From Bacteroidota bacterium (GTDB lineage: Bacteria > Bacteroidota > Bacteroidia > Chitinophagales > Saprospiraceae), in NCBI GenBank assembly GCA_046051005.1, contig JBJOPA010000264.1:38755-102754 (forward strand): DNA of 64,000 bases, read 5' to 3'. Positions 1 through 64,000 of the stretch are shown here, in pieces. The notes under the pieces were generated by a model, which saw only the letters and a list, made by a program, of their open reading frames with translations, was not told the origin of the DNA and did no database searches. Position numbers and translations under genes: made by a program. How positions within the stretch are numbered: position 1 is the stretch's first letter; the number at the start of each line of letters is the position of its first letter.

Positions 1-359
1 GCGACAAGGCAAAAGCACATGGGCGACAAAACCAAATCGAAGGTCGAATCGAAGCAGGGCAGCGCGTATTGGTCGTCGAAGATTTGATTTCGACGGGCGG
101 CAGCAGTTTCAAAGCGGTGGAAGCATTGCGGGCGGAAGGGCTGCATGTGGTGGGCGTTTTGGCTATTTTTTCCTACGATTTTGACGAGGCGACCCAACTT
201 TTTGCAAAAAACAATTGTCCATTGATAACCATCACAGGTTATAACAAACTCTTGCAAGAAGCGGTTTCAATGGGTTATATTAGTGCCGACGACCGACAAA
301 CGCTCGAAGATTGGCGCAGCAATCCAAAAACTTGGAAACAAGCCGAATCTATTGGGTAA
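1..359 (+). CDS. pyrE: orotate phosphoribosyltransferase, C-terminal part (5' end lies outside the window)
   Basis: The frame is open from position 3. The translation ...GQRVLVVEDLISTGGSS... is the PRPP-binding loop of type I phosphoribosyltransferases. The stop codon is at 357-359. Confidence 0.85.
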   Translation, partial: DKAKAHGRQNQIEGRIEAGQRVLVVEDLISTGGSSFKAVEALRAEGLHVVGVLAIFSYDFDEATQLFAKNNCPLITITGYNKLLQEAVSMGYISADDRQTLEDWRSNPKTWKQAESIG

Positions 360-388
360 AAAAAAACGATTTATTTCACTGAAAATAC

Positions 389-438
389 AAAAAATGCCGC
401 ATTCCAGCTTTTGATACTGGGGGGTGGCATTTTTTTTT
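389..438 (-). repeat. CAGTAT-box copy 1 (G-form ATACTGGGGGG at 414-424) in a half-decayed palindrome
   Basis: AAAAAATGCCGC...ATACTGGGGGGTGGCATTTTTTTTT. ATGCCGC pairs with GTGGCAT. It lies 30 nt downstream of the pyrE stop and probably doubles as a terminator. Confidence 0.8.
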
Positions 439-622
439 GCTTTTTTGAGAATTTAGCAAATTTTGGTACAAGAATTGAATTATTTATAATATGATATAAA
501 CACCAACAACTATTTTATATGACTTCCCAAAATATCAAACTTTTCTCAAAGTAAAAAAAAATCTATCTACCTTTTTTTCTATTTCTCAAGTTTTTAAATT
601 CAAAAACGATTAAACCTTTTTT

Positions 623-2020
623 ATGAAAGCAAAAAAAATAAAAGTTTTACGTATTATGATTGAAATTGACCAATTTGCTGGGCGTTTTATCCATGAAAAA
701 TTTGACCCAACCGATGTTTATACGCATCGAAAAGCACGGATTTTGGTTTATACACATCTTTTCGCCATCGGAATTGGCGGAATTATGCAACTCTCAAACA
801 TGTTATATTGGAATGGCGCAAACGACCAAGTTTCGGTCATATTGTCCATTTTATCTACGATTTGCAGCCTTTTGGCGTTTCGCAAGTGGGGCAATTTGCT
901 CGTGAGTGGCAACTTTTTGGCATTCGCATGGGCGATTCCGTTGGCGATGTCAGTGCCAAATACAGGCGGCATACATTCAGATAATTTGTTATGGCTCATC
1001 ACGGTTCCGCTTACGGCTTTGTTGTTTGCGAGTTGGCGTTCGGGTATCATTTGGTTGGGTTTTTTGATTGGCTTTGTGTGTTGGTTGATGGTACAAAATT
1101 CTAATCAAAATTTTTTAAACACCATTACGGAGAGCGTAAATAGCTATTACGCATTTAGTTATATATTTTTATTTATCGCAATATTTTGTATCGTCAATAT
1201 TTTTGAAGCGGGTCAACATCTCGTCATCAAACAACTTTCTGAGCAAAAAAGATTGCTCGAACAGCAAAAAAAAGCCATCGAAGAACAAGCCGTTGCGATG
1301 CAAAAAATTGACGAGCAACTCCGCGCCACCAACGCTGAACTCGAAAATTTTGCCTACGCCGCCAGTCACGACCTCAAAGAACCTTTGCGCATGATTGGCT
1401 CCTACACGCAACTCGTGCGCCGCCGTATGCAACCCCATTTGCAAGGCGATACCCTCGAATTTATGGGCTATGTCACCGACGGCATCAACCGAATGCAACG
1501 CCTGTTAGACGATTTGTTGAATTATTCGAGGCTCGGAAGGGAAGAACAAAAAGAACGAAGCATAGACTTGAACAATATTTTATTTGTCGTTTTGCATAAT
1601 TTGATGGTAAATATGCGGGAAAATGATGCCGCGATTGTTGCCAACGATTTGCCAAAAATAATGGGTTCGACGACAGAAATGATACAATTGTTCCAAAATT
1701 TGATTACCAATTCCATCAAATTTAGGAAAACGGAACAAGGCGATTCGCCGCTAATTGAGATTGAAAGTCGAGAAGACGGAGATGAAATTGTGTTAATGTT
1801 TCGAGACAACGGCATCGGCATTGCGCCTGAATATCACGAGCGTATTTTTAATATTTTTCAACGTCTTCATGCACGCGGCGAGTACGAAGGTTCGGGAATT
1901 GGATTGGCGACGTGCAAAAAAATTGTTCAAAATATCGGCGGACGCATTTGGCTGGAAAGCGAAGAAGGCGCAGGAACAACGTTTTTTATCGCCATTCCCC
2001 AAAAAGCGTTGGCGGCTTAA
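623..2020 (+). CDS. membrane-bound sensor histidine kinase
   Basis: The N-terminal ~200 aa are hydrophobic, with several predicted TM helices, followed by a coiled-coil linker. H-box FAYAASHDLKEPLR. HATPase motifs FRDNGIGI and GSGIGLATCKKIV. Confidence 0.9.
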   Translation: MKAKKIKVLRIMIEIDQFAGRFIHEKFDPTDVYTHRKARILVYTHLFAIGIGGIMQLSNMLYWNGANDQVSVILSILSTICSLLAFRKWGNLLVSGNFLAFAWAIPLAMSVPNTGGIHSDNLLWLITVPLTALLFASWRSGIIWLGFLIGFVCWLMVQNSNQNFLNTITESVNSYYAFSYIFLFIAIFCIVNIFEAGQHLVIKQLSEQKRLLEQQKKAIEEQAVAMQKIDEQLRATNAELENFAYAASHDLKEPLRMIGSYTQLVRRRMQPHLQGDTLEFMGYVTDGINRMQRLLDDLLNYSRLGREEQKERSIDLNNILFVVLHNLMVNMRENDAAIVANDLPKIMGSTTEMIQLFQNLITNSIKFRKTEQGDSPLIEIESREDGDEIVLMFRDNGIGIAPEYHERIFNIFQRLHARGEYEGSGIGLATCKKIVQNIGGRIWLESEEGAGTTFFIAIPQKALAA

Positions 2021-2028
2021 AAAATATG

Positions 2029-2041
2029 CCCCCCCCAGTAT
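2029..2041 (+). repeat. CAGTAT-box copy 2 (C8AGTAT), intergenic
   Basis: AAAATATGCCCCCCCCAGTAT. It starts 9 nt after the histidine kinase stop. Confidence 0.9.
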
Positions 2042-2079
2042 AACAGCCTTTTTGCGCGTGCAAAAAGGCTGTTATTTTT
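2042..2079. terminator. Bidirectional rho-independent terminator between convergent genes
   Basis: A 14-bp stem AACAGCCTTTTTGC / GCAAAAAGGCTGTT with a GCGT loop, followed by ATTTTT. Confidence 0.8.
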
Positions 2080-2089
2080 GTTGAAAATC

Positions 2090-3334: not shown

Positions 3335-3683
3335 GGTTATGGACTTTTTTTCTGGGTAGAAATGAAATTTAGTGGTTTTGCAACGCGCTTTGGCAACGTT
3401 TGCGAAAAGTTAAAAATGATTGTTAATAAGTTGTAAACAAATTCAGCAACAAATTTTGACAAAAGCATCGGAATTACAAAATTTTTCAGCACTTTTTTTT
3501 GCCATCACATCAAAATATATTTTAACAAAATAAATCATTTAAAAAAAATATTTATAAAACCTATGTTTTAAATGATTTACATAAAATTTTTAATATTATT
3601 TTATAAAAAAATATGTAAATAAAAATAAATAACAACACTTTTTTGAAAACTTATTTTTTGCAAGGCGATGACAAAAAAATGGC

Positions 3684-3691: not shown

Positions 3692-3728
3692 CGATGTTTT
3701 TTTTCTAAAAATTAATTATCAAAATAAG

Positions 3729-6564: not shown

Positions 6565-6567
6565 AAA

Positions 6568-7144: not shown

Positions 7145-7155
7145 CCCCCCAGTAT
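7145..7155 (+). repeat. CAGTAT-box copy 6, intergenic
   Basis: AAAAAAGGCTACCCCCCAGTATAT, 20 nt after the folB stop. Confidence 0.9.
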
Positions 7156-7241: not shown

Positions 7242-8351
7242 TTAAGCAGTTAACATTTTCACAAAATTGTCGAACAAGTATTGCGCATCGTGTGGACCAG
7301 GCGATGCTTCGGGGTGATATTGGACAGAAAAAGCCCGTTTTCCGCGCAGACTGATGCCTTCAATCGTATCGTCGTTGAGGTTGCGATGGGTGATTTCGAT
7401 GGTGTCCGATTTTTGGCGAATCACGTCAGGGTCAACGCCAAAACCGTGATTTTGACTCGTAATTTCACAGCGATTGGTCAACAAATTCAACACGGGGTGA
7501 TTGATGCCGCGATGCCCATTGTGCATTTTATACGTCGGCACGCCCAATGCCAATGCCAGCAACTGATGCCCCAAACAAATGCCAAAAAGTGGTTTTTCAG
7601 TTTTCAAAATTTGTTGCACCGTTTCGACGGCATAACCCATTGCCGCAGGGTCGCCCGGTCCGTTGGAAAGGAAAAATCCGTCTGGATTCCAAGCCGCAAT
7701 TTCAGAAAAAGGCGTTTTGGCAGGAAACACTTTTAAATAACAATCTCGTTGCGAAAAATTATTCAAAATACTTCGTTTTACCCCAAAATCAAGGACGGCA
7801 ACGCGATATTTAGCGGTTGATTGCCCCCAAAAATAGGGTTGCGCGGTCGTCACGCGAGACGAAAGTTCCAATCCGTCCATCGAAGGCGTGGCATCGAGCT
7901 TCAATTGTAGGATTTCGAGGTCAAAAATTTCGGAGGAAATGATGGCGTTCATGGCTCCTTTGTTGCGGATATGCCGCACGATTGCCCGCGTATCCACGTC
8001 GCTGATGCCCACCATTTCTTGATTTTCAAAATAGGTTTGCACGTCGCTGTCTGCCATCGGTCGGGCATACTGGGGGGTGAAATTTTTGCAGACCAAACCT
8101 GCGATTTGCATTTTTTCGGCTTCGACTTCGGTGTTTTTAACGCCGTAATTGCCGATGTGGGCGTTGGTGGTCACCATGATTTGCCCGAAATAAGAAGGGT
8201 CGGTAAAAATTTCTTGATAGCCCGTCATGCCCGTGTTGAAGCAGATTTCGCCTGTCGTGGTGCCGATTTTGCCCGCCGCTTTGCCTTGAAAAACCGTTCC
8301 GTCTGCCAACAACAAGACGGCTGGTTTTGATTGATTGCTCGTCAAATTCAT
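7242..8351 (-). CDS. carA: carbamoyl-phosphate synthase small (glutaminase) subunit
   Basis: 369 aa. N-terminus LLLADGTVFQGKAAG. The class I GATase catalytic Cys is in GICLGHQLL, followed by HRGINHPV and VQYHPEASPGPHD. Confidence 0.95.
   Translation of the reverse strand: MNLTSNQSKPAVLLLADGTVFQGKAAGKIGTTTGEICFNTGMTGYQEIFTDPSYFGQIMVTTNAHIGNYGVKNTEVEAEKMQIAGLVCKNFTPQYARPMADSDVQTYFENQEMVGISDVDTRAIVRHIRNKGAMNAIISSEIFDLEILQLKLDATPSMDGLELSSRVTTAQPYFWGQSTAKYRVAVLDFGVKRSILNNFSQRDCYLKVFPAKTPFSEIAAWNPDGFFLSNGPGDPAAMGYAVETVQQILKTEKPLFGICLGHQLLALALGVPTYKMHNGHRGINHPVLNLLTNRCEITSQNHGFGVDPDVIRQKSDTIEITHRNLNDDTIEGISLRGKRAFSVQYHPEASPGPHDAQYLFDNFVKMLTA
8067..8077 (-). repeat. CAGTAT-box copy 7 inside carA
   Basis: GCATACTGGGGGGTG. 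On the coding strand it reads CACCCCCCAGTATGCC = TPQYA. Confidence 0.85.
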
Positions 8352-8520: not shown

Positions 8521-8535
8521 CCCCCCCCCCAGTAT
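8521..8535 (+). repeat. CAGTAT-box copy 8 (C10AGTAT), intergenic
   Basis: AAAAAACGCCCCCCCCCCAGTATAT, between the divergent carA and ugd genes. Confidence 0.9.
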
Positions 8536-10157: not shown

Positions 10158-10162
10158 CTTCA

Positions 10163-10228
10163 AAAAATGCTACCCCCCAGTATCCAACCCCATTTTGGCG
10201 GTTTTATACTGGGGGGTAGCATTTTTTA
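10163..10228. repeat. CAGTAT-box palindromic pair (copies 9 and 10)
   Basis: AAAAAATGCTACCCCCCAGTAT (10163-10184), a 22-nt spacer, then ATACTGGGGGGTAGCATTTTTT (10207-10228). The 22-nt arms are perfect. It lies just distal to a separate canonical ugd terminator. Confidence 0.95.
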
Positions 10229-11913: not shown

Positions 11914-11926
11914 CCCCCCCCAGTAT
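11914..11926 (+). repeat. CAGTAT-box copy 11 (C8AGTAT), intergenic
   Basis: CCAAAAAACGCCCCCCCCAGTATCCAA, 13 nt after the guaB stop. Confidence 0.9.
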
Positions 11927-11969: not shown

Positions 11970-12506
11970 GTGAGAAAAATAGTTGTTTTGATGATTTTGA
12001 TGGGGCAATTTTGGGCTTGTCGGCAACCTGTTTTGCCAACCGACAACCCTGAATTGGTGTTGAAAAAAATGTTCCCAAATAGCAGCGATTTTGAATGTGA
12101 TACGTTAGAAAACAACGATTTGATGTTCAGTTTTGTAGCAGATGGCTACAATTCGTCCGCCATTTTCGGAAGAGATAGTACTTTTAAAAATGATAAAAAT
12201 GTTGCCCAAAAATTGCAAGAAGTGCAGCAAAATTGGGATTTTACCTTGCTTCCAACCGAAGTTTTGACGGGTGTAAAATCTTTTTTTAAAGATTTTGACG
12301 CGGAAAATGTGATAAATTTGGACAAAATCAGCCGATATACTGGGGGGGGGGCATTGGAAGGCATTTTTTATGATATTGAATACGATGATGGTGAAAACCT
12401 CGTCATTGTGCAATTTGATGCGAAAGGCAAACTCATTCAACAAAACAAAATCAAACTTTCTGACCTCGAAATTCAACAAAAAGAGGAAGAAGGCGTTGAA
12501 GATTAA
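11970..12506 (+). CDS. hypothetical small secreted protein or lipoprotein
   Basis: 178-aa ORF with a GTG start and an N-terminal hydrophobic segment ending ...FWAC. No recognisable domain. Contains one motif copy (RYTGGGALEG). Confidence 0.5.
   Translation: MRKIVVLMILMGQFWACRQPVLPTDNPELVLKKMFPNSSDFECDTLENNDLMFSFVADGYNSSAIFGRDSTFKNDKNVAQKLQEVQQNWDFTLLPTEVLTGVKSFFKDFDAENVINLDKISRYTGGGALEGIFYDIEYDDGENLVIVQFDAKGKLIQQNKIKLSDLEIQQKEEEGVED
12337..12351 (-). repeat. CAGTAT-box copy 12 (ATACTG10) inside a CDS
   Basis: Inside ORF 11970..12506, read as RYTGGGAL. Confidence 0.9.
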
Positions 12507-13888: not shown

Positions 13889-13902
13889 CCCCCCCCCAGT
13901 AT
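13889..13902 (+). repeat. CAGTAT-box copy 13 (C9AGTAT), intergenic
   Basis: GTAAAAATGCCCCCCCCCAGTATAT, 18 nt after the hisS stop. Confidence 0.9.
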
Positions 13903-16440: not shown

Positions 16441-16454
16441 ATACTGGGGGGGGG
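16441..16454 (-). repeat. CAGTAT-box copy 14 (ATACTG9), intergenic
   Basis: TTATACTGGGGGGGGGCTATTTT, 6 nt downstream of the ROK kinase stop on the minus strand. Confidence 0.9.
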
Positions 16455-16459
16455 CTATT

Positions 16460-17374
16460 TTACAACATCGCTGCGCCAAAAACGCCTGCGCTATCGCCCA
16501 ACGCGGGTTTCAAGAATTGCGTTTCGAGGCGATTGTTGAAAATGAATTTGCGGACTTCGTCCACGCCATCGGTATAGATGGAGTCAATGTTTCCCACGCC
16601 GCCGCCGATGACAATGGCATCAGGGTCGAGAATGTTGATGACATTTGCCACCGCTTTTCCAAAAAAATGATGCAATCGTTGCATCGTTGCTTGTGCGGCG
16701 GGGTCAATCGGGGCTTCATCGGCAATGATTTTGAGTTTTTTCTTTTTCCCCGTTTGTTGAAAATAAAAATTTTCTAACGAAACGCCTGCCAACACTTTTT
16801 CGACGCAACCCACGCGCCCGCAATAGCACGCGCCGCCCGACGTGTCCAAAAAGTTGTGTCCCCATTCGCCGCCGATACCGTGTCTGCCGTTCAAAACTTG
16901 CCCGTTTACGAACACGCCGCCGCCCACGCCCGTACCCATGATGATGCCAAAAACGACTTTTGCCGACGGCGATTGCGCAGGAACCGCGCCCAACAAAGCC
17001 TCTGCCACCACAAAACAATTGGCATCATTCGCCATTCTGACTTCTATGCCCAATTGTTTTTCTAAATCCGCTTTCAATGGTTTTCCGTTCAAGCAAACGG
17101 TGTTTGAATTTTTCAACAATTGCGAAGTGGGGTCGAGCGTGCCAGGTGTGCCGATGCCGATGTGGGTTGCTTTTTTACCAACGGCGCGTTCGAGTTCGCC
17201 CACCAATTTCACGATTTGAGAAACGATGTGTTGATAGCCATTTTCCTGTTCGGTAGGCAATCTTTGGCGCGACAAGACGCGAAATACTGGGGGGGGGGCA
17301 TCGGTTGGAATTTCTAAGGTAACACCCTCTATTTTGGTGCCGCCTAAATCAATACCAAAAAGAATTTGACTCAT
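16460..17374 (-). CDS. ROK-family sugar kinase (glucokinase / N-acetylglucosamine kinase-like)
   Basis: The ATP-binding N-terminus is FGIDLGGTK, followed by DANCFVVAEA. The ROK zinc motif is GHNFLD...CYCGRVGCVE. Confidence 0.88.
   Translation of the reverse strand: MSQILFGIDLGGTKIEGVTLEIPTDAPPPVFRVLSRQRLPTEQENGYQHIVSQIVKLVGELERAVGKKATHIGIGTPGTLDPTSQLLKNSNTVCLNGKPLKADLEKQLGIEVRMANDANCFVVAEALLGAVPAQSPSAKVVFGIIMGTGVGGGVFVNGQVLNGRHGIGGEWGHNFLDTSGGACYCGRVGCVEKVLAGVSLENFYFQQTGKKKKLKIIADEAPIDPAAQATMQRLHHFFGKAVANVINILDPDAIVIGGGVGNIDSIYTDGVDEVRKFIFNNRLETQFLKPALGDSAGVFGAAML
17284..17298 (-). repeat. CAGTAT-box copy 15 (ATACTG10) inside the ROK kinase gene
   Basis: On the coding strand it reads GATGCCCCCCCCCCAGTATTT = DAPPPVF. 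Confidence 0.9.
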
Positions 17375-19557: not shown

Positions 19558-19623
19558 AAAAAAGACCACCCCCCAGTATCAACGCTCAAAAAAGGGCTTG
19601 GATACTGGGGGGTGGTCTTTTTT
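19558..19623. repeat. CAGTAT-box palindromic pair (copies 16 and 17)
   Basis: AAAAAAGACCACCCCCCAGTAT (19558-19579), a 22-nt spacer, then ATACTGGGGGGTGGTCTTTTTT (19602-19623). It starts 17 nt after the stop of the substrate-binding protein gene. Confidence 0.95.
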
Positions 19624-20245: not shown

Positions 20246-20875
20246 ATGGAAGAAATTTTGAATTATTTCCCGAATCTCACGCCGCAACAAGTGGCGCAAT
20301 TCGAGCAACTGATGCCGCTTTACGTAGAATGGAATGAAAAAATAAACGTCATTTCGCGAAAAGACATCGAAAATTTGTATCGTCACCACGTGCTACATGC
20401 GTTGGCGATTGCAAAATTTGTAGATTTTAAGCCCGATGCCCATATTTTGGACTTGGGTACTGGGGGGGGCTTCCCGGGCATTCCGTTGGCGATTATTTTT
20501 CCAGAAACACAATTTTATTTGACCGACAGCATCGGCAAAAAAATAACGGTCGTCAAGGCGGTTGCCGAAGCGTTGGATTTGAAAAACGTAACCGCCCACC
20601 ATGTGCGGGCAGAAGAAGTGAAAGAAAAATTTGATTTTGTGATAACCCGCGCCGTTGCTACGTTTGACCAATTGGCGCGTTGGTCTTTGCGGTCGCTCAA
20701 AAAAAAGCACATTCATGCCTATCCAAACGGCATTATTGCGCTCAAAGGTGGAAATATTAAAGAGGAAATGCGTTTATTGCCGTTTCGACCTTATTACGAA
20801 GTGCAACCGATTAAAAAATATTTTCCATTCGACTTTTTTGATGAAAAATATATTGTCTATTTACAAGGACATTAA
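20246..20875 (+). CDS. rsmG: 16S rRNA (guanine527-N7)-methyltransferase
   Basis: The GidB-family SAM motif is LDLGTGGGFPGIPLAI, followed by VITRAVA. About 209 aa. Confidence 0.88.
   Translation: MEEILNYFPNLTPQQVAQFEQLMPLYVEWNEKINVISRKDIENLYRHHVLHALAIAKFVDFKPDAHILDLGTGGGFPGIPLAIIFPETQFYLTDSIGKKITVVKAVAEALDLKNVTAHHVRAEEVKEKFDFVITRAVATFDQLARWSLRSLKKKHIHAYPNGIIALKGGNIKEEMRLLPFRPYYEVQPIKKYFPFDFFDEKYIVYLQGH
20458..20469 (-). repeat. Variant copy 18 (gTACTG8) inside rsmG
   Basis: GGTACTGGGGGGGGC encodes the GTGGG of the SAM-binding loop. It may be coincidental or an exapted copy. Confidence 0.4.
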
Positions 20876-27459: not shown

Positions 27460-27472
27460 CCCCCCCCAGTAT
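27460..27472 (+). repeat. CAGTAT-box copy 21 (C8AGTAT), intergenic
   Basis: AAAAAAAAAAGTACCCCCCCCAGTATG, upstream of the adhesin start. Confidence 0.9.
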
Positions 27473-28675: not shown

Positions 28676-28689
28676 ATACTGGGGGGGGG
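28676..28689 (-). repeat. CAGTAT-box copy 22 (ATACTG9 + CGTTTTTTT), intergenic
   Basis: It directly abuts family-2 repeat copy d. It lies 27 nt downstream of the kynA stop on the minus strand. Confidence 0.9.
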
Positions 28690-29786: not shown

Positions 29787-29797
29787 ATACTGGGGGG
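29787..29797 (-). repeat. CAGTAT-box copy 23 in the meaB-kynA intercistronic gap
   Basis: GGATACTGGGGGGTATCATTTTTTT. The extended arm overlaps the last codons and stop of meaB (…SKK*). Confidence 0.9.
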
Positions 29798-34179: not shown

Positions 34180-34193
34180 ATACTGGGGGGGGG
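34180..34193 (-). repeat. CAGTAT-box copy 27 (ATACTG9), intergenic
   Basis: AAATACTGGGGGGGGGCTATTTT, between the helicase start and the stop of ORF 34300..35505. Confidence 0.9.
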
Positions 34194-35669: not shown

Positions 35670-35680
35670 ATACTGGGGGG
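35670..35680 (-). repeat. CAGTAT-box copy 29, intergenic
   Basis: TTATACTGGGGGGTAGCATTTTTT, preceded by a degenerate family-2 repeat. Confidence 0.9.
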
Positions 35681-38173: not shown

Positions 38174-38187
38174 ATACTGGGGGGGGG
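38174..38187 (-). repeat. CAGTAT-box copy 30 (ATACTG9 + CATTTTTT), intergenic
   Basis: It lies immediately after the hemD terminator hairpin. Confidence 0.9.
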
Positions 38188-40831: not shown

Positions 40832-40845
40832 CCCCCCCCCAGTAT
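40832..40845 (+). repeat. CAGTAT-box copy 31 (C9AGTAT), intergenic
   Basis: CAAAAACATGCCCCCCCCCAGTATAT. It lies just after the terminator hairpin of gene 38233..40737. Confidence 0.9.
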
Positions 40846-41939: not shown

Positions 41940-41950
41940 CCCCCCAGTAT
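41940..41950 (+). repeat. CAGTAT-box copy 32, intergenic
   Basis: AAAATAGCCACCCCCCAGTATAT, between the -7 box and the start of the M23 peptidase gene. Confidence 0.9.
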
Positions 41951-42004: not shown

Positions 42005-43843
42005 ATGAAACACTTCCCTACATTTCTGACTGTTTGCGCGGCGGCTGCGCTTTTTTTGTCTTTCGACAATCCGAAAAAAGCGGTGCGCGACTATCCAAAA
42101 GATTTTTTTCAAAGTCCCGTTCCGCATAGCGTCAGCATTTCGGGTTCGTTTGGCGAGCTGCGTCCCAACCATTTTCATTCGGGAATTGACATTCGCCCCG
42201 CGAGTTCGGGCGTGACGGAACCGATTTTGGCGGCGGGCGATGGCTACGTTTCGCGCATCAAAATTGCGCCGTCGGGCTACGGAAATGCGCTCTACATCAC
42301 GCATCCCAACGGCTATGTCACCGTCTATGGGCATCTCGACCGCTACGCGACGGCGATTCAAGAATATGCACGAAAAAAACAATACGAACAAGAGTCTTTT
42401 GAGGTTGACCTCACGCCCGCGCCCAACGAATTGCCCGTTTCCAAAGGGCAACAAGTGGCGATGATGGGAAATACAGGGCATTCGTTTGGCATGCACCTAC
42501 ATTTCGAGATTCGAGATGCCGCGACCGAAGAAACCGTCAACCCGTTTTTATTTGGCATTTCGCCTGCCGACCACATCGCGCCGTCCATGCAATCGTTGAA
42601 AATTTATTTGCTCAACGAAAAAAATGAAGTCACGGGCAGCCAATTTGCCAGCGTCCGAAAAACAAGCGGCAATCAATATACAATTGATGGAAATTTATTA
42701 AGTTTAAATGCTGCGAAAGTGGCTTTTGCCCTCAAAACTTTTGACCGACACGATGGCGATAGCGGCGAAAATGGCGTTTTCAGCATCGAAACACAGCGCG
42801 ATGACCAAACCATTCATCGCTTTGTGGCGGAAAGATTTAGTTTTTCTGAAACCCGTTACATCAATGCACACCTTGATTTTCAAGAACAAAATAGCCGAAA
42901 AGCCTTGCTCAATCGCTTGTGGAGACTGCCCGGAAATCAACTTTCGATGTACGAATCGGAAGTCAATGCGGGTATCGTTGACCTTTCGGCTACGCCCGCT
43001 CGCATGCACGTGACCGCTCGCGATGTCGCAGGAAATGCCGCTACGCTCGATTTTCAAGTTGCGTCTTCTGGAAATGGCATTTCATTGCCCCCCCCCAGTA
43101 ATTATCAATATTTGTTGCCCGTAAACGAAGAAAGTATTGTAAAAATTGAAGGTGCGACAATTTATTTTCCTAAAAATGCTTTATACGAAAATTTATATTT
43201 AAAACTTACTGCCACCAATAATGTGGGAAGTTCTAATACGTTTTCGCAAACGATTCATGTTCACGACGTGCTTACGCCCGTTCACGCGCCGTTTAAAATT
43301 GGACTTCGTGCCGATAATTTGCCGCCCGAACTGCAATCGAAGGCATTTATCGGTTATTGTCGCCGCAGCGATGGAAATATTTATACCATCGGCGGAAAAT
43401 TTGATGCCGCAACAGGTTTATGGACGGGGCAATCTGACAAATTTGGAAATTTTTGCGTCATGACCGACCAAATTGCGCCGCGTGTACAAACCCTCAATTT
43501 GCCCGAAAAAATTAATTCAGAAAATGGACGAATTTCTTTTAAAATAAATGACAATTTTGAAGCGATGGGAGCCGAAGCATCGAACCTGAAATTTCGAGCG
43601 ACGATTGATGAGGATTGGATTTTGATGGAATATGAACAAAAAAGTGATATGATTTGGCACAAGTTTTCAGGTGATATTGCGGACGGGAAACATCGTTTCA
43701 AATTGGTGGTGACCGACCCATGCGGCAATGAAACGGTGATTGAGAAGGAAATTGAATTAGATGACGATGTCCACGCAACGGTCAAAAAAGCATCGAAACC
43801 TAGTAAAAAATCATCAAAACCTACAAAAAAGAAGAAAAAATAA
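42005..43843 (+). CDS. M23-family metallopeptidase with a large C-terminal extension and a Lys-rich tail
   Basis: HFHSGIDIR and MGNTGHSFGMHLHFEI are the HxxxD / HxH zinc ligands. Signal peptide present. I chose the ATG at 42005; the ORF track starts at a TTG at 41996. Confidence 0.85.
   Translation: MKHFPTFLTVCAAAALFLSFDNPKKAVRDYPKDFFQSPVPHSVSISGSFGELRPNHFHSGIDIRPASSGVTEPILAAGDGYVSRIKIAPSGYGNALYITHPNGYVTVYGHLDRYATAIQEYARKKQYEQESFEVDLTPAPNELPVSKGQQVAMMGNTGHSFGMHLHFEIRDAATEETVNPFLFGISPADHIAPSMQSLKIYLLNEKNEVTGSQFASVRKTSGNQYTIDGNLLSLNAAKVAFALKTFDRHDGDSGENGVFSIETQRDDQTIHRFVAERFSFSETRYINAHLDFQEQNSRKALLNRLWRLPGNQLSMYESEVNAGIVDLSATPARMHVTARDVAGNAATLDFQVASSGNGISLPPPSNYQYLLPVNEESIVKIEGATIYFPKNALYENLYLKLTATNNVGSSNTFSQTIHVHDVLTPVHAPFKIGLRADNLPPELQSKAFIGYCRRSDGNIYTIGGKFDAATGLWTGQSDKFGNFCVMTDQIAPRVQTLNLPEKINSENGRISFKINDNFEAMGAEASNLKFRATIDEDWILMEYEQKSDMIWHKFSGDIADGKHRFKLVVTDPCGNETVIEKEIELDDDVHATVKKASKPSKKSSKPTKKKKK
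43088..43100 (+). repeat. Variant copy 33 (C9AGTAaT) inside the M23 peptidase gene
   Basis: TTGCCCCCCCCCAGTAATTAT, read as LPPPSNY. The last core position differs. Confidence 0.5.
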
Positions 43844-43845: not shown

Positions 43846-43911
43846 AAAAAATATTACCCCCCAGTATAAAACCCCAAAAAAGCGGAAATATACTGGGGGG
43901 TATCATTTTTT
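43846..43911. repeat. CAGTAT-box palindromic pair (copies 34 and 35)
   Basis: AAAAAATATTACCCCCCAGTAT (43846-43867), a 22-nt spacer, then ATACTGGGGGGTATCATTTTTT (43890-43911). It starts 3 nt after the M23 stop and is followed by a separate canonical hairpin at 43933-43977. Confidence 0.9.
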
Positions 43912-46604: not shown

Positions 46605-46615
46605 CCCCCCAGTAT
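46605..46615 (+). repeat. CAGTAT-box copy 36, intergenic
   Basis: AAAAAAAGATACCCCCCAGTATGG, downstream of the stop of the TolB-like gene (minus strand). Confidence 0.9.
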
Positions 46616-47924: not shown

Positions 47925-47935
47925 ATACTGGGGGG
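47925..47935 (-). repeat. CAGTAT-box copy 37, intergenic
   Basis: GCATACTGGGGGGTAGTTTTTTTT, in the divergent promoter region between the TolB-like and ABC ATPase genes. Confidence 0.9.
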
Positions 47936-48762: not shown

Positions 48763-48773
48763 ATACTGGGGGG
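48763..48773 (-). repeat. CAGTAT-box copy 38, intergenic
   Basis: ATATACTGGGGGGTAGCCTTTTT. It starts 3 nt after the ABC ATPase stop. Confidence 0.9.
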
Positions 48774-50146: not shown

Positions 50147-50195
50147 AAAAAATACCCCCAAAATCGGTCGGATACTGGGGGGTATTGTTTTTTTT
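50147..50195 (-). repeat. CAGTAT-box copy 39 (G-form at 50172-50182) in a half-decayed palindrome
   Basis: AAAAAATACCCCC...GGATACTGGGGGGTATTGTTTTTTTT. AATACCCCC pairs with GGGGGTATT. It lies downstream of the methyltransferase stop on the minus strand. Confidence 0.85.
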
Positions 50196-51002: not shown

Positions 51003-51016
51003 CCCCCCCCCAGTAT
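51003..51016 (+). repeat. CAGTAT-box copy 40 (C9AGTAT), intergenic
   Basis: CAAAAAATGCCCCCCCCCAGTAT is followed by the hairpin TCCAAGCC...GGCTTGGA. It lies between skp and the methyltransferase gene. Confidence 0.9.
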
Positions 51017-51784: not shown

Positions 51785-51795
51785 CCCCCCAGTAT
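51785..51795 (+). repeat. CAGTAT-box copy 41, intergenic
   Basis: CACTACCCCCCAGTATC, upstream of the skp start. Confidence 0.9.
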
Positions 51796-51952: not shown

Positions 51953-53719
51953 TTATTCGCTATAAATCCACCAATTGGCTCCGTCGCTGATAATTTTATA
52001 TTTTTTTGCAAAAGCGAGGCTGCTCACATCGGTGGTTTCGGTGAGTTTTAACGCGGGCGAAAATGTGACGAGATTTATGGTTTCGTCCGATTTTCCGACC
52101 ACATACGTTCGTCCGACACAACTGATCGGCAAGGGCAAGGTCAATGTTATAGGCGCATTGGTCGCGTTTGCCAACACGATGTGATTGGTTTCGTCGAGTG
52201 TCCAATCGGCAGTGGTGCGCATAAAACTCATGCCGACCGAACCGTTGATTTGCAAAGTCGAATTGGGCGTGCTGGTTCCGATGCCAATTTTTCCATCGTT
52301 TCGGATAATCATTTTTTGAGTCGGAACCGCTGACCCGATGGGCGAAGTGAAAAATTGAATATTTCCAGGCATGTCTCCTGCGCCAATCGCATCGTCACTT
52401 GCCATTACAATTTTTGCAGCTTTCTGAAAATTTGCGCCGTCATACGCCTCCGCCTCGAAAGACGCGATGCTACCGCCCGTAAAAATCGTTGGCGCAAGGT
52501 CTGTTCCATTCGATTTTCTGACGCGAATGGTCGAAAAATCGGTTCCGTAAGACGTTAAATCCACATCGGCATTGAAATTATAGGTTGCCGTTCCGCGCAC
52601 GTCTAACATTTGTGCGGGCGTATTGATGCCAATGCCCGTTTTTCCGCCCAAATAATTGATATCGTCAATACCCGTTTGATACACGCCAAAACCGTTGGTC
52701 GCCAACACATCGCCTACAAAAATTCCGTATCCGTTTGTAATCGTCGCGCTGCCGCCCTTGCTAAATTCGCTATAAACGCCATACGCATTGGTGATGGTTC
52801 CCGTTCCCGCCGCTTGCACGCGGGCATAGACGCTACGCGCATTGGAAATCACGCCGCCCGAACTGTTCGACACCATGCCTCGAATCCCGATGGCACTCGT
52901 GAACGCACCAAAACTATTGTTATTCGCAATATTATCGCTGCCATAAGCCGTAGAAATTGTCCCAGAACTTCTGTTTTCTGCCAACGAATTGATACCCGTC
53001 AAAATGCTTACCGCGCCAGTTCCTGAATATTTTGCGTCGGCAGCCGATGCCACCAACGTAGAATTGGCAACGTTGTTGGACGAAGAACGCAACAAATGAT
53101 ACCCCCCAGTATAAGTCGTCGTCGCCGCACTCGTCGGCGTGACGGTCGTGTTGGACAACCAACCACTGTGGTCCCAAACATTGATAAAAGAAGCGGCATT
53201 GCTGATGGTGTCTATCAATTGTGAAAATGGGGTAGCGGCGGCGGTGGTTCCCGACACATGCAATTTTGCCGAAGGCGCAGTCGTGCCAATCCCCAAAAAA
53301 CCTGTCGAAGACAAACGCATTTGCTCCGAATTGCTGGTTCTAAACGCCAAATCTTGCGCGTTTGTGGTTCCTAAAAAATTGGTGGTTGGGTTGGTGTTGC
53401 TGTTTCCCGTCAGACTCCACGCGCCCAAACTGCTGGGGTCGCACATGCTTTGCCACGTCGAATTGCGATAAACCCAAATGCAATGGGTAGTCGTATTATA
53501 AATTTGTAAACCATTTGCGGGGCTGGAAATTGCCGTCATGTCGGCAGTGGTCATGCGCGGGAGCAAAAAACCACGATTGACACTTTCGATTTCTACGATT
53601 GCCGATGGATTTTTGGTGCCTGGATTGTCGCCAAATTTGACTTGCGCCGTCGCCACATTCCACAGAAAGAAAAGGCTCAAAACACCAAAGGATTTTAAAG
53701 TTTTTATATTCGTACTCAT
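51953..53719 (-). CDS. hypothetical secreted fibre-like repeat protein
   Basis: 588-aa ORF with a signal peptide. A GIG(T/I)xxPxxxLx(V/I)xG motif recurs three times (LGIGTTAPSAKLHVSG, TGIGINTPAQMLDVRG, KIGIGTSTPNSTLQINGS). Between these lie Gly/Ser/Thr/Asn-rich ~20-aa repeats. Confidence 0.55.
   Translation of the reverse strand: MSTNIKTLKSFGVLSLFFLWNVATAQVKFGDNPGTKNPSAIVEIESVNRGFLLPRMTTADMTAISSPANGLQIYNTTTHCIWVYRNSTWQSMCDPSSLGAWSLTGNSNTNPTTNFLGTTNAQDLAFRTSNSEQMRLSSTGFLGIGTTAPSAKLHVSGTTAAATPFSQLIDTISNAASFINVWDHSGWLSNTTVTPTSAATTTYTGGYHLLRSSSNNVANSTLVASAADAKYSGTGAVSILTGINSLAENRSSGTISTAYGSDNIANNNSFGAFTSAIGIRGMVSNSSGGVISNARSVYARVQAAGTGTITNAYGVYSEFSKGGSATITNGYGIFVGDVLATNGFGVYQTGIDDINYLGGKTGIGINTPAQMLDVRGTATYNFNADVDLTSYGTDFSTIRVRKSNGTDLAPTIFTGGSIASFEAEAYDGANFQKAAKIVMASDDAIGAGDMPGNIQFFTSPIGSAVPTQKMIIRNDGKIGIGTSTPNSTLQINGSVGMSFMRTTADWTLDETNHIVLANATNAPITLTLPLPISCVGRTYVVGKSDETINLVTFSPALKLTETTDVSSLAFAKKYKIISDGANWWIYSE
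53102..53112 (+). repeat. CAGTAT-box copy 42 inside ORF 51953..53719
   Basis: On the coding strand it reads ACTTATACTGGGGGGTAT = TYTGGY. Confidence 0.85.
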
Positions 53720-53851: not shown

Positions 53852-53864
53852 CCCCCCCCAGTAT
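53852..53864 (+). repeat. CAGTAT-box copy 43 (C8AGTAT), intergenic
   Basis: AAAAAAATACGCCCCCCCCAGTAT. It directly abuts family-2 repeat copy e. Confidence 0.9.
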
Positions 53865-55292: not shown

Positions 55293-55358
55293 AAAAAAGC
55301 CTACCCCCCAGTATCCAAACCACTTTTTCGGTTCGGATACTGGGGGGTAGGCTTTTTT
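55293..55358. repeat. CAGTAT-box palindromic pair (copies 44 and 45)
   Basis: AAAAAAGCCTACCCCCCAGTATCC (55293-55316), an 18-nt spacer, then GGATACTGGGGGGTAGGCTTTTTT (55335-55358). The 24-nt arms are perfect. It lies between the CHU_C gene start and the CBS gene stop. Confidence 0.95.
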
Positions 55359-55393: not shown

Positions 55394-56050
55394 TTAAATG
55401 CTCAAATAATTGAGCAACATATCATAATTTTCTTTCAAATCGTTGATGTAATCTTCTTCTGTAAACGACGCTTTGACGATGTAGCCGAATCGGACAAAAG
55501 TTGCCAAAATGCGCTGAATATCTGGACGACTGATTTTGAGCGTAACCTCCAATTCGGTGGTGTCGGGCGCAGAAGTCACGAAGGAATTTAGGACAAACGC
55601 ATTTTCAGATTCTACAATACGTGCAATTTGCGAAAGCGAATAATTCTGACGATTTACTTCCAACACAATCACCGCGCCATGCTCGGCAAAGGCTGCACTT
55701 TTTGCAAAAAATTGCAACAAATCGTAGAGCGTAATCACGCCTAAATATTTGTTTTCGAGGCTTACGACTGGCACAAGCGTCAATTTATGCTGATTAATTT
55801 GCCGCATGACCTCGTAAATGTGGTCGTTTTCGCGGGCATACTGGGGGGGGGCGAGTGCGTAGGTTTCGACGGCATCGTCGGGGTCGAAGTTCCAGATTTG
55901 TTCTTCGGCAAGCAACCCAATGATTTGTTCGTCGCGGACGATGGGCAAATGTCTGACGTGAAAATCATTCATCATTTGCAAGGCATCGTCGCCTGTCGAA
56001 GTCGGCTTGAGCGGAAATACTTCGCTCGAAATCAATTCTTTTGCAATCAT
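55394..56050 (-). CDS. CBS-pair domain protein with an ACT-like C-terminal domain
   Basis: Two CBS motifs are present (VRHLPIVRDEQIIGLLAEEQI, LTLVPVVSLENKYLGVITLYDLL). 218 aa. Confidence 0.75.
   Translation of the reverse strand: MIAKELISSEVFPLKPTSTGDDALQMMNDFHVRHLPIVRDEQIIGLLAEEQIWNFDPDDAVETYALAPPQYARENDHIYEVMRQINQHKLTLVPVVSLENKYLGVITLYDLLQFFAKSAAFAEHGAVIVLEVNRQNYSLSQIARIVESENAFVLNSFVTSAPDTTELEVTLKISRPDIQRILATFVRFGYIVKASFTEEDYINDLKENYDMLLNYLSI
55838..55851 (-). repeat. CAGTAT-box copy 46 (ATACTG9) inside the CBS-domain gene
   Basis: On the coding strand GCCCCCCCCCAGTATGCC is read as APPQYA. Confidence 0.9.
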
Positions 56051-57483: not shown

Positions 57484-57494
57484 ATACTGGGGGG
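57484..57494 (-). repeat. CAGTAT-box copy 47, intergenic
   Basis: ATATACTGGGGGGTCGCATTTTTTT, between the lpxH-like start and the metK stop. Confidence 0.9.
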
Positions 57495-58955: not shown

Positions 58956-58969
58956 CCCCCCCCCAGTAT
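58956..58969 (+). repeat. CAGTAT-box copy 48 (C9AGTAT) in the metK 5' leader region
   Basis: AAAAACTCCCCCCCCCAGTATCCGAGCC, 48 nt upstream of the metK ATG. Confidence 0.9.
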
Positions 58970-60445: not shown

Positions 60446-61051
60446 TTGAAGCATGTGGGCTTTCAAATAGGCTTCGATGTGTTGGGAAATATATTTTCCA
60501 ATAATATCAAATTCAATATTCACAAAATCGCCGACTTTTAATTGATGAAAAGTCGTGTTTTCAAAAGTAAAAGGGATAATCGCTACCGAAAATTCGCGGT
60601 CTTTGGGTTCGACCACCGTCAAACTCACGCCGTTGACCGTCACAGAGCCTTTCGGAACGAGAATATACTGGGGGGGGGCATCAAAAGCAAAACGAAACAG
60701 CCAACTGCCGTTTTCATCGCGTCTTTCGATGCATCGGGCGGTCGTGTCCACGTGACCTTGCACTTGATGTCCGTCGAGTCGTGCGCCTGCGACCATCGCC
60801 CGTTCAATGTTGATTTTATCGCCCGTTTTCAAGGCATTTAGATTCGTCAATCGTAGGGTTTCGGCAATTGCTGTGACGGTAAATACGTCGTCTTTGATGT
60901 CCACGACGGTCAAACAAACGCCGTTGTGCGACACGCTTTGGTCTATTTTGAGCGAATCGGTCAACGTAGAAGCAATGTCGAGATGGATATTTGTTCCTTC
61001 GGTGCGAATGGCGCGCACGGTCGCCAAATTTTCAATAATTCCAGTAAACAT
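60440..61051 (-). CDS. ribE: riboflavin synthase (alpha chain)
   Basis: MFTGIIE... with duplicated lumazine-binding repeats (SVSHNGVCLTV and SVTVNGVSLTV). 203 aa. Confidence 0.93.
   Translation of the reverse strand: MFTGIIENLATVRAIRTEGTNIHLDIASTLTDSLKIDQSVSHNGVCLTVVDIKDDVFTVTAIAETLRLTNLNALKTGDKINIERAMVAGARLDGHQVQGHVDTTARCIERRDENGSWLFRFAFDAPPQYILVPKGSVTVNGVSLTVVEPKDREFSVAIIPFTFENTTFHQLKVGDFVNIEFDIIGKYISQHIEAYLKAHMLQS
60665..60678 (-). repeat. CAGTAT-box copy 49 (ATACTG9) inside ribE
   Basis: On the coding strand GATGCCCCCCCCCAGTATATT is read as DAPPQYI. It aligns to a normal RibE segment and is not an insertion. Confidence 0.9.
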
Positions 61052-61140: not shown

Positions 61141-61184
61141 AAAAAAAAAACGACTACCAAAATACTTCGGCAGTCGTTTTTTTT
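61141..61184 (-). terminator. hppA terminator
   Basis: A10-CGACTACC ... GGCAGTCG-T8, 7 of 8 bp paired. Confidence 0.7.
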
Positions 61185-61204
61185 ATATCTCGGATAACAA
61201 AAAA

Positions 61205-63457
61205 TTATTTCACTTTCGTAACCGTTGCTTGACCGACATTCAATGTTTGCGGTTCAGCAACAGGAGCTTTTGGTTGCTCGATAATTGTTTTAGTTTCTGA
61301 TATGCCCGTTGTTTTGTGTTTGCCGTTTTGCTGACCCAAAATTGGAGCAATCGCCAAACCTACCAAACAAGACAATTTGATGAGGATATTCATCGAAGGA
61401 CCTGACGTATCTTTGAATGGGTCGCCTACGGTGTCACCTGTAACCGCCGCTTTGTGTGGTTCAGATTTTTTGTAGAACATTTCACCGTTGATTTCAACGC
61501 CTTTTTCAAAAGATTTTTTTGCATTGTCCCATGCACCACCTGCATTTGATTGAAAAATAGCCCACATAACACCCGAAACCGTCACGCCCGCCATGTACGC
61601 GCCCAACGCTTCCGCGCCCATGATGAAGCCCACCAAAATTGGTGAAATGATGGTAATTGCACCCGGCAACATCATTTCGCGCAATGCTGCTTCGGTAGAG
61701 ATTTGTACACAACGGTCATATTCAGGCTTGCCTGTACCTTCCAAAATTCCTGGAATTTCGCGGAACTGGCGACGCACTTCCTGCACCATGTCCATTGCTG
61801 CACGACCTACGGCATTCATTGCCAAAGCCGAGAACACCACTGGAATCATGCCACCAATGAACAATGCAGCCAATACTTCTGCTTTGAAAATATTGATGCC
61901 ATCAATGCCTGTAAATTTCACGTAAGCCGCAAACAACGCCAACGCCGTCAAAGCTGCCGAAGCAATCGCAAAACCTTTGCCAATCGCTGCGGTTGTGTTG
62001 CCCACAGAGTCCAAAATATCGGTACGTCCACGTACTTCTTCTGGCAATTCTGACATTTCAGCAATACCACCCGCATTGTCTGCGATAGGTCCGAAAGCGT
62101 CAATTGCCAATTGCATGGCGGTAGTTGCCATCATTGCCGAAGCTGCCAATGCCACACCGTAGAAACCAGAGAAGAAATAAGAACCCCAAATCGCACCTGC
62201 GAACAACAAAATCGGATAAGCCGTTGACATCATGCCTACGCCCAAACCCGCAATAATGTTCGTCGCTGGACCCGTTGCAGACGCTCTGATGATGTCCATA
62301 ACAGGTTTTTTGCCCATTGCTGTATAATATTCGGTCAACATTGAAATCAATGCGCCTACAATTAAACCGAAAATGACCGAAGCAAAAACGTGGTTCGGCG
62401 TGATTCTCGCATTCGCTTCACCAAATTTTTCTACATAAAACTCGGCTGGCAACATCCATTGCAACACAGCATACGATGCAATTGCCGTCAAGATGATAGC
62501 AATCCAGTTGCCGCGATTCAATGCACTTTGTACCGTATCAATCGTTGCTTTGCCGTCGTCGCTCACTTTCACCAAGAATGAACCCATGATGGAGAAAACA
62601 ACGCCCAAACCTGCCAACAAAATAGGAATCAAGATAGGTCCCATATTGCCAAAAGCATCTGTAAAACCGGGATTTGCAGCAATCACATAATTGCCCAACA
62701 CCATAGATGCCAACACCGTTGCCACATACGAGCCGAACAAATCCGCGCCCATGCCTGCTACGTCACCTACATTGTCGCCTACGTTGTCGGCGATAGTTGC
62801 AGGATTGCGCGGGTCATCTTCTGGAATGCCTGCTTCTACTTTGCCCACGAGGTCTGCGCCTACGTCAGCTGCTTTGGTATAAATGCCGCCACCTACACGC
62901 GCAAACAACGCGATAGATTCTGCACCAATAGAGAAACCTGCAAGGATTTCTAATACTTTTACCATTGAATCGGTGCTGCCGACATAGAAGATTTTGGTCA
63001 AAATGATGAACAAAATGCTCAAACCCAACACCGCCAAACCTGCTACGCCCAAACCCATGACCATACCGCCACGGAAAGAAACGTCCAATGCTTTTGAAAG
63101 GCTCGTGCGTGCTGCTTCTGTCGTGCGCACGTTGGCTTTGGTCGCCACGCGCATGCCGATATTGCCCGCTACTGCGGAAAACACCGCGCCAATCACAAAC
63201 GCAACCGCGATAGACCAGTGCGAAGTGGCTACCAACGTAGATTGCGCCGCCAAAGCAATGGCTGCTACCAAAACGAAAATTGTCAAAATGCGATATTCTG
63301 CCTTCAAAAATGCCATCGCACCTTCTTGAATCGCACCTGAAATTTCTTGCATGCGGCTATTGCCAGCATCTTGCTTGTTGACCCACGACCATAAATATGC
63401 CATGTAAGCCAAACCTAATACGCCAAAAACTGGCAATACGTACATCAACGAATCCAT
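61205..63457 (-). CDS. hppA: membrane-integral H+/Na+-translocating pyrophosphatase
   Basis: 750 aa, polytopic. [49 protein letters not shown]. Confidence 0.95.
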
Positions 63458-63569
63458 AAATTTAAATCGTTAAACTGTTGATTTTAAAATTTTTTTTGAA
63501 AATAAAACTTTTGATTCTGATAATTTTTTGCGTTGATGAAAAAAAAATGCTTAAAAACCGAAAAAGACA

Positions 63570-63583
63570 CCCCCCCCCAGTAT
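63570..63583 (+). repeat. CAGTAT-box copy 50 (C9AGTAT), intergenic
   Basis: AAAAAGACACCCCCCCCCAGTATAA, upstream of the hppA start. Confidence 0.9.
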
Positions 63584-64000
63584 AAAACCCATTTTTCCCA
63601 CTTTTTTGTCTGATTTGTCTCGAAAAGAAAATCATACAAATATAAAAAACTATATGTTTCTCTCGAAACGGCGCAAAAGTAAGATAAACCAATCAAAAAT
63701 AGATACGAATTTTATTTTTTTTCCATCATTTTGACCGTTTTAACCGCATTTTTTCAAAAAAAAGATAGAAAAAATCTTTTCCCCGTCTTTTCTCGCATCA
63801 AAATTTTTCAAGAATCTTTTTTTCAAAAATAGAATCCAAAAATTAAAATTTCGTTTTTAATTGTAATTTGTAGGTAAAAAATGATTAAAATTTTATTTTT
63901 TCACAACACAACGACATTTTGTACGTTACATTTTTTAGGTGAAAAGTATTACAACTATTTGGCTTCAATTTTTTACTTAAATTTATGAAAAATACCTTTA

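Follow-up and report, generated by a model that had tools for sequence, protein, structure and literature searches.

Why should a single short DNA word recur dozens of times within 64 kb of a bacterial genome, on both strands, inside genes as well as between them? The question is raised by a stretch of 64,000 nucleotides (hereafter, the window) from contig JBJOPA010000264.1 of the Bacteroidota assembly GCA_046051005.1, in which the 11-mer CCCCCCAGTAT or its reverse complement ATACTGGGGGG is present in 47 exact copies, 23 on the plus strand and 24 on the minus strand. Dinucleotide-preserving shuffles of the window contain the word 0.01 times on average and at most once. An earlier reading of this DNA (the original prediction) had reported the same total and a balanced orientation, both of which our recount reproduces, and had proposed a signal of the kind represented by the DNA uptake sequences (DUS) of Neisseriaceae and the uptake signal sequences (USS) of Pasteurellaceae. 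Our analysis leads us to favor, with a probability of roughly 0.6, the view that the word is a DNA uptake enhancing sequence of the DUS/USS type, or, at the least, a signal of self-recognition that acts at the DNA level in a similar manner.

The word, its dialects and its conservation

The invariant core of the word is the 10-mer CCCCCCAGTA, which occurs 50 times in the 64 kb against an expectation of 0.01-0.05. Three one-off variants of the 11-mer had been listed previously; all three are real (20457 and 24303 on the minus strand, 43091 on the plus strand) and deviate at the last base alone, and the true core is therefore the 10-mer. No other one-mismatch copy was found in the window, and every 8-mer CCCAGTAT within it is part of a full word. 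The three copies without the final T are all intragenic, and the final T is present in each of the 33 intergenic copies. The core is asymmetric, differing from its own reverse complement, and across the lineages described below the word takes the general form C(4-10)[C/T]CAGTA(T). The length of its C-run in the window is bimodal, with six residues in 24 copies and nine in 14 copies, and ranges from 6 to 10. Runs of 8-10 C or G residues also lie within coding sequences (e.g., at 3247, 12337 and 17284); homopolymer tracts are prone to slippage, and because the C-runs of the word sit in coding sequences the genome tolerates many potential frameshift hot spots.

When copies are aligned on the core, the 5′ flank shows an A-run at -11 to -6 followed by N-G-C-[C/T]-[A/C]. 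Preferences on the 3′ side are weak and consist of CC at +11/+12 (11 copies), C at +16 and a T-run at +19 to +23. Among intergenic single copies the common sequence extends over about 45 nt and comprises the A-run, GC, the core, CCAAnCC and the T-run. An extended element of about 20 nt had been proposed earlier; its literal flank AAAAAATGC is present in only a minority of copies. About six of the start positions first given for the C-form copies are displaced by 1-4 nt, in most cases since counting had begun at the first base of a longer C-run (e.g., 2029 for 2031, 8521 for 8525). A sequencing or assembly artefact was considered and rejected, as identical copies are present in independent NCBI, JGI, ENA and Logan assemblies.

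Nor is the word limited to this part of the genome. PurH of the window is identical to RL757_1952 of a metagenome-assembled genome (MAG), and PolA of the same MAG (RL757_2042) is encoded on an unlinked 27-kb contig, L118. In 22 kb of this contig there are 15 copies of the window word, all followed by T, eight of which lie in genes, two of these in polA; the window and L118 together sample about 86 kb of this genome. In a close relative, L004 (GCA_965192095.1, 95% PurH identity), window positions 1-13,600 have a syntenic counterpart with 89.8% nucleotide identity, and all 12 copies shared by the two are intact. None of the 132 core positions has changed, versus 100 of 656 positions (15%) in the ±30-nt flanks of these copies and 10.2% divergence in the rest of the 13.6-kb alignment (P ~7e-7 for an unchanged core), suggesting that the core is under purifying conservation above the neutral expectation.

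Relatives at 76-78% PurH identity (L005-L007, L011 [GCA_016787525.1] and L012) lack the window word and carry instead the one-base variant CCCCTCAGTA, here called the T form. Per ~21.5 kb there are 15 T-form copies in L005, 22 in L011 and 18 in L012, where an order-3 Markov model expects 0.03, and only the T form is seen on the sister-lineage contig L095 (P0023), where 12.5 kb contain 9-10 copies (expected 0.01-0.03). The C form alone is found in the window, L004 and L118, and no locus contains both forms. Their densities are similar: the C form reaches 0.75/kb and the T form, with 64 copies in 77 kb, 0.83/kb. A PurH neighbor-joining tree places the window lineage as sister to P0017/P0023; the T form is probably ancestral and the C form derived, to which this single-protein tree lends weak support. 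We take the one-base dialect between sister lineages to be the decisive result of the analysis.

Neither form was detected in four further relatives (L013, L014, L096 and L097), nor in 80 outgroup loci totaling 1.04 Mb with PurH identities of ≤65%. The latter came from a metagenome scan anchored on PurH, which returned relatives at ≤65% identity alone and thus served as a negative panel and not as an extension of the clade. A search for the inverted-pair C-form pattern (see below) across 185,579 species representatives returned two chance hairpins in unrelated MAGs alone; no genome rich in paired C-form words is among these representatives, and the species is therefore absent from them. It does occur in metagenomes, namely JGI 3300043421, 3300044826 and 3300047563 and SRR35185529 and SRR35355967. 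The Saprospiraceae label in the sources is carried by a PolA relative 79% identical to L011 and by more distant PurH relatives.

Several other features of these loci were recorded. Over-represented words of L096, L097 and L014 were examined as further dialects and rejected, as they are clustered, palindromic, intergenic repeats resembling repetitive extragenic palindromic (REP) elements. They consist of AATTACGA-CCACC...GGTGG-TCGTAATT and of GTCGGTTAGT runs, are strictly intergenic, and lie at 8100-8160, 14879-14935 and 15907-15945 in L097, at 7377-7440 and 9968-9990 in L014, and at 5900-5980, 6981-7010 and 12139-12220 in L096. The 9-mer ATTCCCGTG occurs 10 times in the 11.5 kb of outgroup locus L083 (Ga0180433_10001745). 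Contig L103 (IMGVR_UViG_3300037309_000133, 555-5805; see also L115) is a genuine phage contig, encoding a terminase large subunit and a Mu Gp36-like protein; it holds six T-dialect copies in 6 kb, one of them in the terminase gene and two forming an inverted pair. The host of this phage or prophage was probably a bacterium of the T dialect. In L095, purH is followed at 4145-9021 by a restriction-modification cluster comprising a type IIG-like gene (N6_Mtase/Eco57I/MmeI-type) with two T-dialect copies inside it, a HindIII-like endonuclease gene and an N6_N4 methyltransferase gene. The two dialect words contain ACTGGG and CTCAG; a link of these motifs to restriction sites was considered and set aside, since the targets of restriction enzymes are as a rule avoided and not enriched.

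How copies arise and where they lie

In the T-dialect loci, 47 of 55 copies (85%) are in genes, which equals the coding fraction. All five stop-free reading frames of the T form are used (PLS, PPQY, PSV, LRG and TEG), and the frame containing TAC-TGA is absent. Placement in genes at the coding fraction and in every stop-free frame argues for a signal at the DNA level and not at that of RNA or peptide. The T-to-C change opens the blocked frame (TAC-TGA to TAC-TGG), and none of the 17 intragenic copies of the window uses it.

Comparisons at individual sites suggest how copies come about. The variable inter-domain linker of purH holds a copy in three lineages, in differing orientations, as TACTGGGGGG in the window, TACTGAGGGG in L012 and CCCCTCAGTA in L005. 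A second purH copy in L005 is related to the corresponding TACTGAGGCG of L012, and to the sequences of other relatives, by in-frame point substitutions only. The sole gain or loss between the window and L004, at L004:7234 in a histidine kinase gene, involves clustered substitutions and no indel. At PolA column 570, eight of the ten closest L011-related sequences read D/N/S/E-TEG, encoded in L011 by TACTGAGGGG; in the same frame the C lineage reads DTGG (TACTGGGGGG), and distant relatives have KKEG, EEAG or QAEN. We read this column as an in-place dialect switch by a single A-to-G change. Taken together, copies appear to arise by point substitution rather than insertion, with the intragenic ones located in what appear to be permissive parts of proteins.

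Within the window, 33 of the 50 copies are intergenic, though only ~14% of the window is non-coding, and 17 are in genes, in agreement with the two-thirds to one-third split given earlier. The accompanying statement that most intergenic copies lie 3-30 nt past stop codons was too strong, as 11 of the 33 have a stop codon or gene 3′ end within 30 nt and about 22 have one within 100 nt; divergent promoter regions hold six or seven. Seven lone single copies have an unambiguous stop no more than 30 nt upstream, and in all of them the C-form is in sense orientation. Strand counts are balanced in the window (23:24) and in the other single loci (6:9, 10:7, 10:5, 11:11 and 12:6). In each of the seven loci the copies are spaced more regularly than expected by chance, the coefficient of variation being 0.37-0.66 versus ~0.93; the T loci, too, are evenly spaced, and periodicity of genes is therefore not the cause there. 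The copies of the window are as follows, each given as coordinates, strand and context.

414..424, minus: word copy, intergenic, ~50 nt after a phosphoribosyltransferase gene seen in L004; conserved in L004
2031..2041, plus: word copy, intergenic, 10 nt after a His-kinase stop, adjoins a terminator hairpin; conserved in L004
3247..3257, minus: word copy in an unknown 414-aa gene (PPPV); conserved in L004
4327..4337, minus: word copy in purH, variable inter-domain linker (DTGG); conserved in L004
5422..5432, plus: word copy in a peptidase C1-like gene, signal-peptide region (PPSM)
7145..7155, plus: word copy, intergenic, 19 nt after folB
8067..8077, minus: word copy in carA (TPQY)
8525..8535, plus: word copy, divergent intergenic region
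10162..10227, both strands: inverted pair 10173+/10206-, 61 nt after a UDP-glucose dehydrogenase gene; A-run/T-run flanks; -46 to -48 kcal/mol
11916..11926, plus: word copy, intergenic, 14 nt after guaB
12337..12347, minus: word copy in an unknown 178-aa gene (YTGG)
13892..13902, plus: word copy, intergenic, 20 nt after hisS
16441..16451, minus: word copy, intergenic, 8 nt after a ROK kinase gene
17284..17294, minus: word copy in the ROK kinase gene (PPPV)
19558..19623, both strands: inverted pair 19569+/19602-, 27 nt after a peptide-binding protein gene; -47 to -54 kcal/mol
20457..20467, minus: 10-mer copy, last base C, in rsmG
21063..21073, minus: word copy in a GH65 gene, N-terminal region (ILGG)
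24303..24313, minus: 10-mer copy, last base G, in a large surface-protein gene
27462..27472, plus: word copy, intergenic
28676..28686, minus: word copy, intergenic, 29 nt after a Trp-dioxygenase-like gene
29787..29797, minus: word copy, intergenic, 2 nt after meaB
30550..30560, plus: word copy in meaB (NTGG)
30790..30800, minus: word copy in meaB (PPQY)
32387..32397, plus: word copy in a UvrD/PD-(D/E)XK helicase-nuclease gene (ILGG)
34180..34190, minus: word copy, intergenic
35053..35063, plus: word copy in an unknown 401-aa gene (DTGG)
35670..35680, minus: word copy, divergent intergenic region
38174..38184, minus: word copy, intergenic, 72 nt after hemD
40835..40845, plus: word copy, convergent intergenic region, in the loop of an A-run/T-run stem
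41940..41950, plus: word copy, divergent intergenic region
43091..43101, plus: 10-mer copy, last base A, in an M23 peptidase gene
43846..43911, both strands: inverted pair 43857+/43890-, between convergent genes, 13 nt after the M23 peptidase stop; -31 to -37 kcal/mol
46605..46615, plus: word copy, intergenic
47925..47935, minus: word copy, divergent intergenic region; a 91-aa open reading frame there has no family match
48763..48773, minus: word copy, convergent intergenic region, 3 nt after an ABC ATPase stop
50172..50182, minus: word copy, intergenic, 50 nt after a methyltransferase gene
51006..51016, plus: word copy, intergenic, adjoins a separate hairpin
51785..51795, plus: word copy, intergenic, no predicted structure
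53102..53112, plus: word copy in an unknown 588-aa gene (YTGG)
53854..53864, plus: word copy, intergenic
55293..55358, both strands: inverted pair 55304+/55337-, 46 nt after a CBS-protein gene; -51 to -56 kcal/mol
55838..55848, minus: word copy in the CBS-domain gene (PPQY)
57484..57494, minus: word copy, intergenic, 142 nt after metK
58959..58969, plus: word copy, divergent intergenic region
60665..60675, minus: word copy in ribE (PPQY)
63573..63583, plus: word copy, intergenic, upstream of an H+-pyrophosphatase gene

The four inverted pairs (10173/10206, 19569/19602, 43857/43890 and 55304/55337) all have a spacer of 22 nt, and each follows a stop codon at a distance of 13-61 nt. Their folding energies are -30 to -56 kcal/mol, and they are flanked by an A-run and a T-run, which bears out the earlier mention of inverted pairs near terminators and suggests that they may act as bidirectional terminator-like hairpins. 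A consensus promoter and terminator scan gave no excess over shuffles and misses the pairs, whose loops exceed its limit; pairs and single copies were assessed by direct folding instead. A G+C-rich hairpin with a U-tract at a gene 3′ end is seen for the four pairs, and for neither most single copies nor any intragenic copy. Most single copies are without stable structure, the core usually lying in the loop between a weakly pairing A-run and T-run. The spacer at 10184-10205 matches L004 16448-16469 better as its reverse complement (17/22 versus 8/22 positions) between identical, conserved arms, and we interpret this as a loop flipped between the arms of the pair relative to its 95% relative. 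C-rich and G-rich tracts that follow intergenic copies at 28687-28730 (ccccccccagcccccccgaagggagggagg) and 53865-53925 (tttcccccctcaatttcc...cttcggggggattggagg) form separate hairpins. An inverted pair in L008 and a single copy in L004 were considered as a test of insertion and set aside as uninformative, since the regions are not syntenic.

Housekeeping genes of the window include purH, carA, guaB, hisS, metK, ribE, folB, rsmG, meaB and those for DHFR and an H+-pyrophosphatase. It also encodes proteins of Bacteroidota type, with CHU_C type IX secretion domains, DUF4271 and DUF5916, which together with the source name support a Bacteroidota origin. Scans of the window for tRNA genes and Rfam families gave no matches.

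Uptake signal or another process

As of late 2025, uptake sequences had been described for two proteobacterial families only, the Neisseriaceae and Pasteurellaceae. Published accounts characterize them by a word of 9-10 nt repeated hundreds to thousands of times, by dialects among related lineages, by inverted pairs that lie between genes within terminators, by intragenic copies confined to tolerant regions, by avoidance of reading frames with a stop, by AT-tracts beside the word, and by accumulation through molecular drive. The word described here shows every one of these traits that sequence can reveal. Haemophilus influenzae has 1,465 USS cores at an average spacing of ~1 kb and Neisseria meningitidis has 1,892 DUS, and AT-tracts contribute to USS uptake (PMC7811141); more than 90% of DUS/USS inverted pairs are in terminators (bioRxiv 10.1101/2025.10.24.684340). 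At the level of sequence, what the original prediction would lead one to expect is found in the spread of the word, its conservation, its dialects, its origin by substitution, the PolA conversion, the avoidance of the stop frame, the even spacing and the pairs.

The word resembles the DUS, recognized by the minor pilin ComP, in being a non-palindromic word of ~10 nt on both strands at a density comparable to that in N. meningitidis, with one-base dialects, intragenic copies in permissive regions, a TGA-blocked frame in the presumed ancestral dialect, and terminator-like inverted pairs. Unlike the DUS (GCCGTCTGAA), it is made of a C-run plus CAGTA, belongs to the phylum Bacteroidota, has a homopolymer C-run of variable length (6-10) and, in the C dialect, is almost without a mismatch halo. 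Shared with the USS, whose receptor is predicted to be ComN, are a core with A/T-tracts at fixed distances, fairly even spacing of ~1 kb, many copies in genes, and accumulation by point mutation consistent with molecular drive. The USS differs in sequence (AAGTGCGGT), and in our case the A-run is 5′ and the T-run 3′ of the core, in the intergenic copies of one dialect only.

If the word is an uptake signal, the competence machinery would include a DNA receptor, on the surface or in the periplasm, that binds double-stranded DNA bearing the 10-bp word, and conspecific fragments would thus be preferentially taken up. Recombination of these fragments would spread alleles that had gained the word by point mutation, and molecular drive would fill tolerant positions until about every fragment of 1-3 kb bore one word. 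The ancestral specificity would have been for CCCCTCAGTA; a one-base change (T to C) in the lineage of the window would then have led to whole-genome turnover to CCCCCCAGTA(T), in part through in-place conversion of old sites. Intergenic copies would have gained their A-run and T-run flanks, with inverted pairs doubling as hairpins of the terminator-like kind.

Several points weigh against an uptake signal. The organisms are uncultured MAGs. No competence, type IV pilus or pilin genes, and no ComP homologue, are present in the gene tables of ~180 kb of lineage DNA, an absence that is uninformative rather than negative as this DNA amounts to ~5% of a genome; a scan of it for the pilin N-terminal motif gave one match in the middle of an open reading frame, and no pilin. 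Around the C-form core there are hardly any mismatched copies (50 are perfect, with near-misses only at the final T), a sharper picture than is known for the DUS and USS. The phage contig L103 carries the T form at host density; uptake sequences are reported to be under-represented in recently acquired DNA, and long-resident prophages can accumulate them. Finally, because two thirds of the copies in the window lineage are intergenic and share flanks of ~45 nt, some of these could have been spread by duplication instead of mutation with drive.

A serious alternative, which we nevertheless consider unlikely, is that some other genome-wide, sequence-specific DNA process drove the density of the word, such as a bias in repair or gene conversion, a nucleoid protein, or a form of defense by which marked DNA is spared. 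The density, presence on both strands, tolerance in coding sequence, dialects, conversion and conservation need only a sequence-specific process at the DNA level and not uptake specifically, and the lack of competence genes in the DNA sampled also counts in its favor. A phage with the word at host density would likewise be expected from a repair or mutation bias of the host, and is compatible with either explanation. However, we know of no repair, defense or nucleoid system that reads a contiguous, non-palindromic word of 10-11 bp at ~1/kb, and restriction targets are usually avoided, not enriched. The cyanobacterial HIP1 (GCGATCGC) is like the word in its hyper-abundance, its occurrence in coding and non-coding DNA, its lineage variants and its lack of an established function, but HIP1 is a palindromic octamer and the word here is asymmetric, 10-11 nt long, and accompanied by inverted pairs at gene ends. 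Even spacing of 1-3 kb and inverted pairs in terminators are, moreover, documented as specific traits of the DUS and USS.

The original prediction had named as an alternative a REP element spread by a REP-associated tyrosine transposase (RAYT), which a strictly extragenic distribution together with a cognate RAYT would favor. In a broader form, an element of REP/REPIN type or one like a miniature inverted-repeat transposable element (MITE) would be spread by an IS200/IS605-type RAYT or another transposase, the pairs being the mobile unit and the single copies its remnants. The identical 22-nt spacing of the four pairs recalls the fixed-spacing inverted doublets of REPINs, which also form long hairpins, and the abundance of intergenic copies (two thirds of the C form) with common ~45-nt flanks would fit such an element. 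REPs are extragenic imperfect palindromes mobilized by RAYT, whereas the unit here is non-palindromic, its single copies fold weakly with the core mostly looped, and 17 of 50 copies in the window (34%), 8 of 15 in L118 and 85% in the sister dialect lie inside genes, conserved housekeeping genes among them, in frame and without indels. New copies are formed by clustered substitutions, with no discrete MITE insertion at the one gain or loss, and the genuine REP-like repeats of L096, L097 and L014 show a different distribution. No Y1 transposase is found in the gene tables of the ~180 kb, a small part of each genome. Intragenic, substitution-derived copies thus largely refute this explanation, and we consider it improbable.

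Equally improbable is an element acting primarily in transcription termination or otherwise at the RNA level, whether as a module of intrinsic terminators or as the sequence to which a termination factor binds at the 3′ ends of genes. All four pairs are strong hairpins with A-run and T-run flanks just past stops, and the uniform sense orientation of the seven lone copies close to stops points the same way. Against this, most single copies lack a stable hairpin, several lie in divergent promoter regions, a third of the window copies and 85% of those of the T dialect are in genes in both orientations, and the simple terminator scan showed no excess; use of pairs as terminators is, in addition, already known as a secondary property of the DUS and USS. 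Least probable of all is a polar signal of the Chi or KOPS (FtsK orienting polar sequences) kind read by a translocase (AddAB/RecBCD, FtsK), since, despite the UvrD/PD-(D/E)XK helicase-nuclease encoded in the window and the over-representation and lineage specificity of such signals, no single locus shows strand skew, inverted pairs are common, and Chi and KOPS words of 5-8 nt hold far less information than 10-11 bp at 0.75/kb.

A possible self-recognition in transformation outside Proteobacteria

Riemerella columbina, also of the Bacteroidota, prefers its own DNA in transformation, and its commonest k-mers are A-rich, with no motif identified (PMC7965970). The original prediction had noted no equivalent signal in this phylum, and our literature search (on the words, uptake sequences in Bacteroidetes, and competence and pili in Saprospiraceae) likewise turned up, in the library searched, nothing comparable for Bacteroidota and no paper containing the words. 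What appears to be new here is an unrelated sequence in a different phylum, with a clean one-base dialect switch and complete turnover, that has the genomic behavior of the DUS and USS. The receptor of the word would presumably differ from the known DUS/USS receptors. Whether this represents an independently evolved self-DNA recognition for transformation in uncultured Saprospiraceae-like Bacteroidota, the first outside Proteobacteria, with a receptor unrelated to ComP/ComN and following a one-base (T to C) change in specificity with turnover of thousands of sites, some of them in place, we put at about even odds.

Sister lineages with exclusive one-base dialects, together with relatives that lack the word, constitute a natural experiment that may lead to the receptor. 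The latter is expected to be a DNA-binding protein of the cell surface that has different specificity residues in the C and T lineages and is missing or degraded in relatives without the word. The word may also serve as a DNA tag of these lineages in metagenomes, for binning, for recognizing recent horizontal transfer and for assigning phages to hosts. If the uptake reading is true, this would be a third, unrelated uptake-sequence system, in Bacteroidota, and sequence-specific self-recognition in transformation would have evolved repeatedly. It would also mean that such self-recognition operates in abundant uncultured environmental bacteria, and that natural competence may be inferable for a lineage never grown in culture by metagenomic sequence alone.

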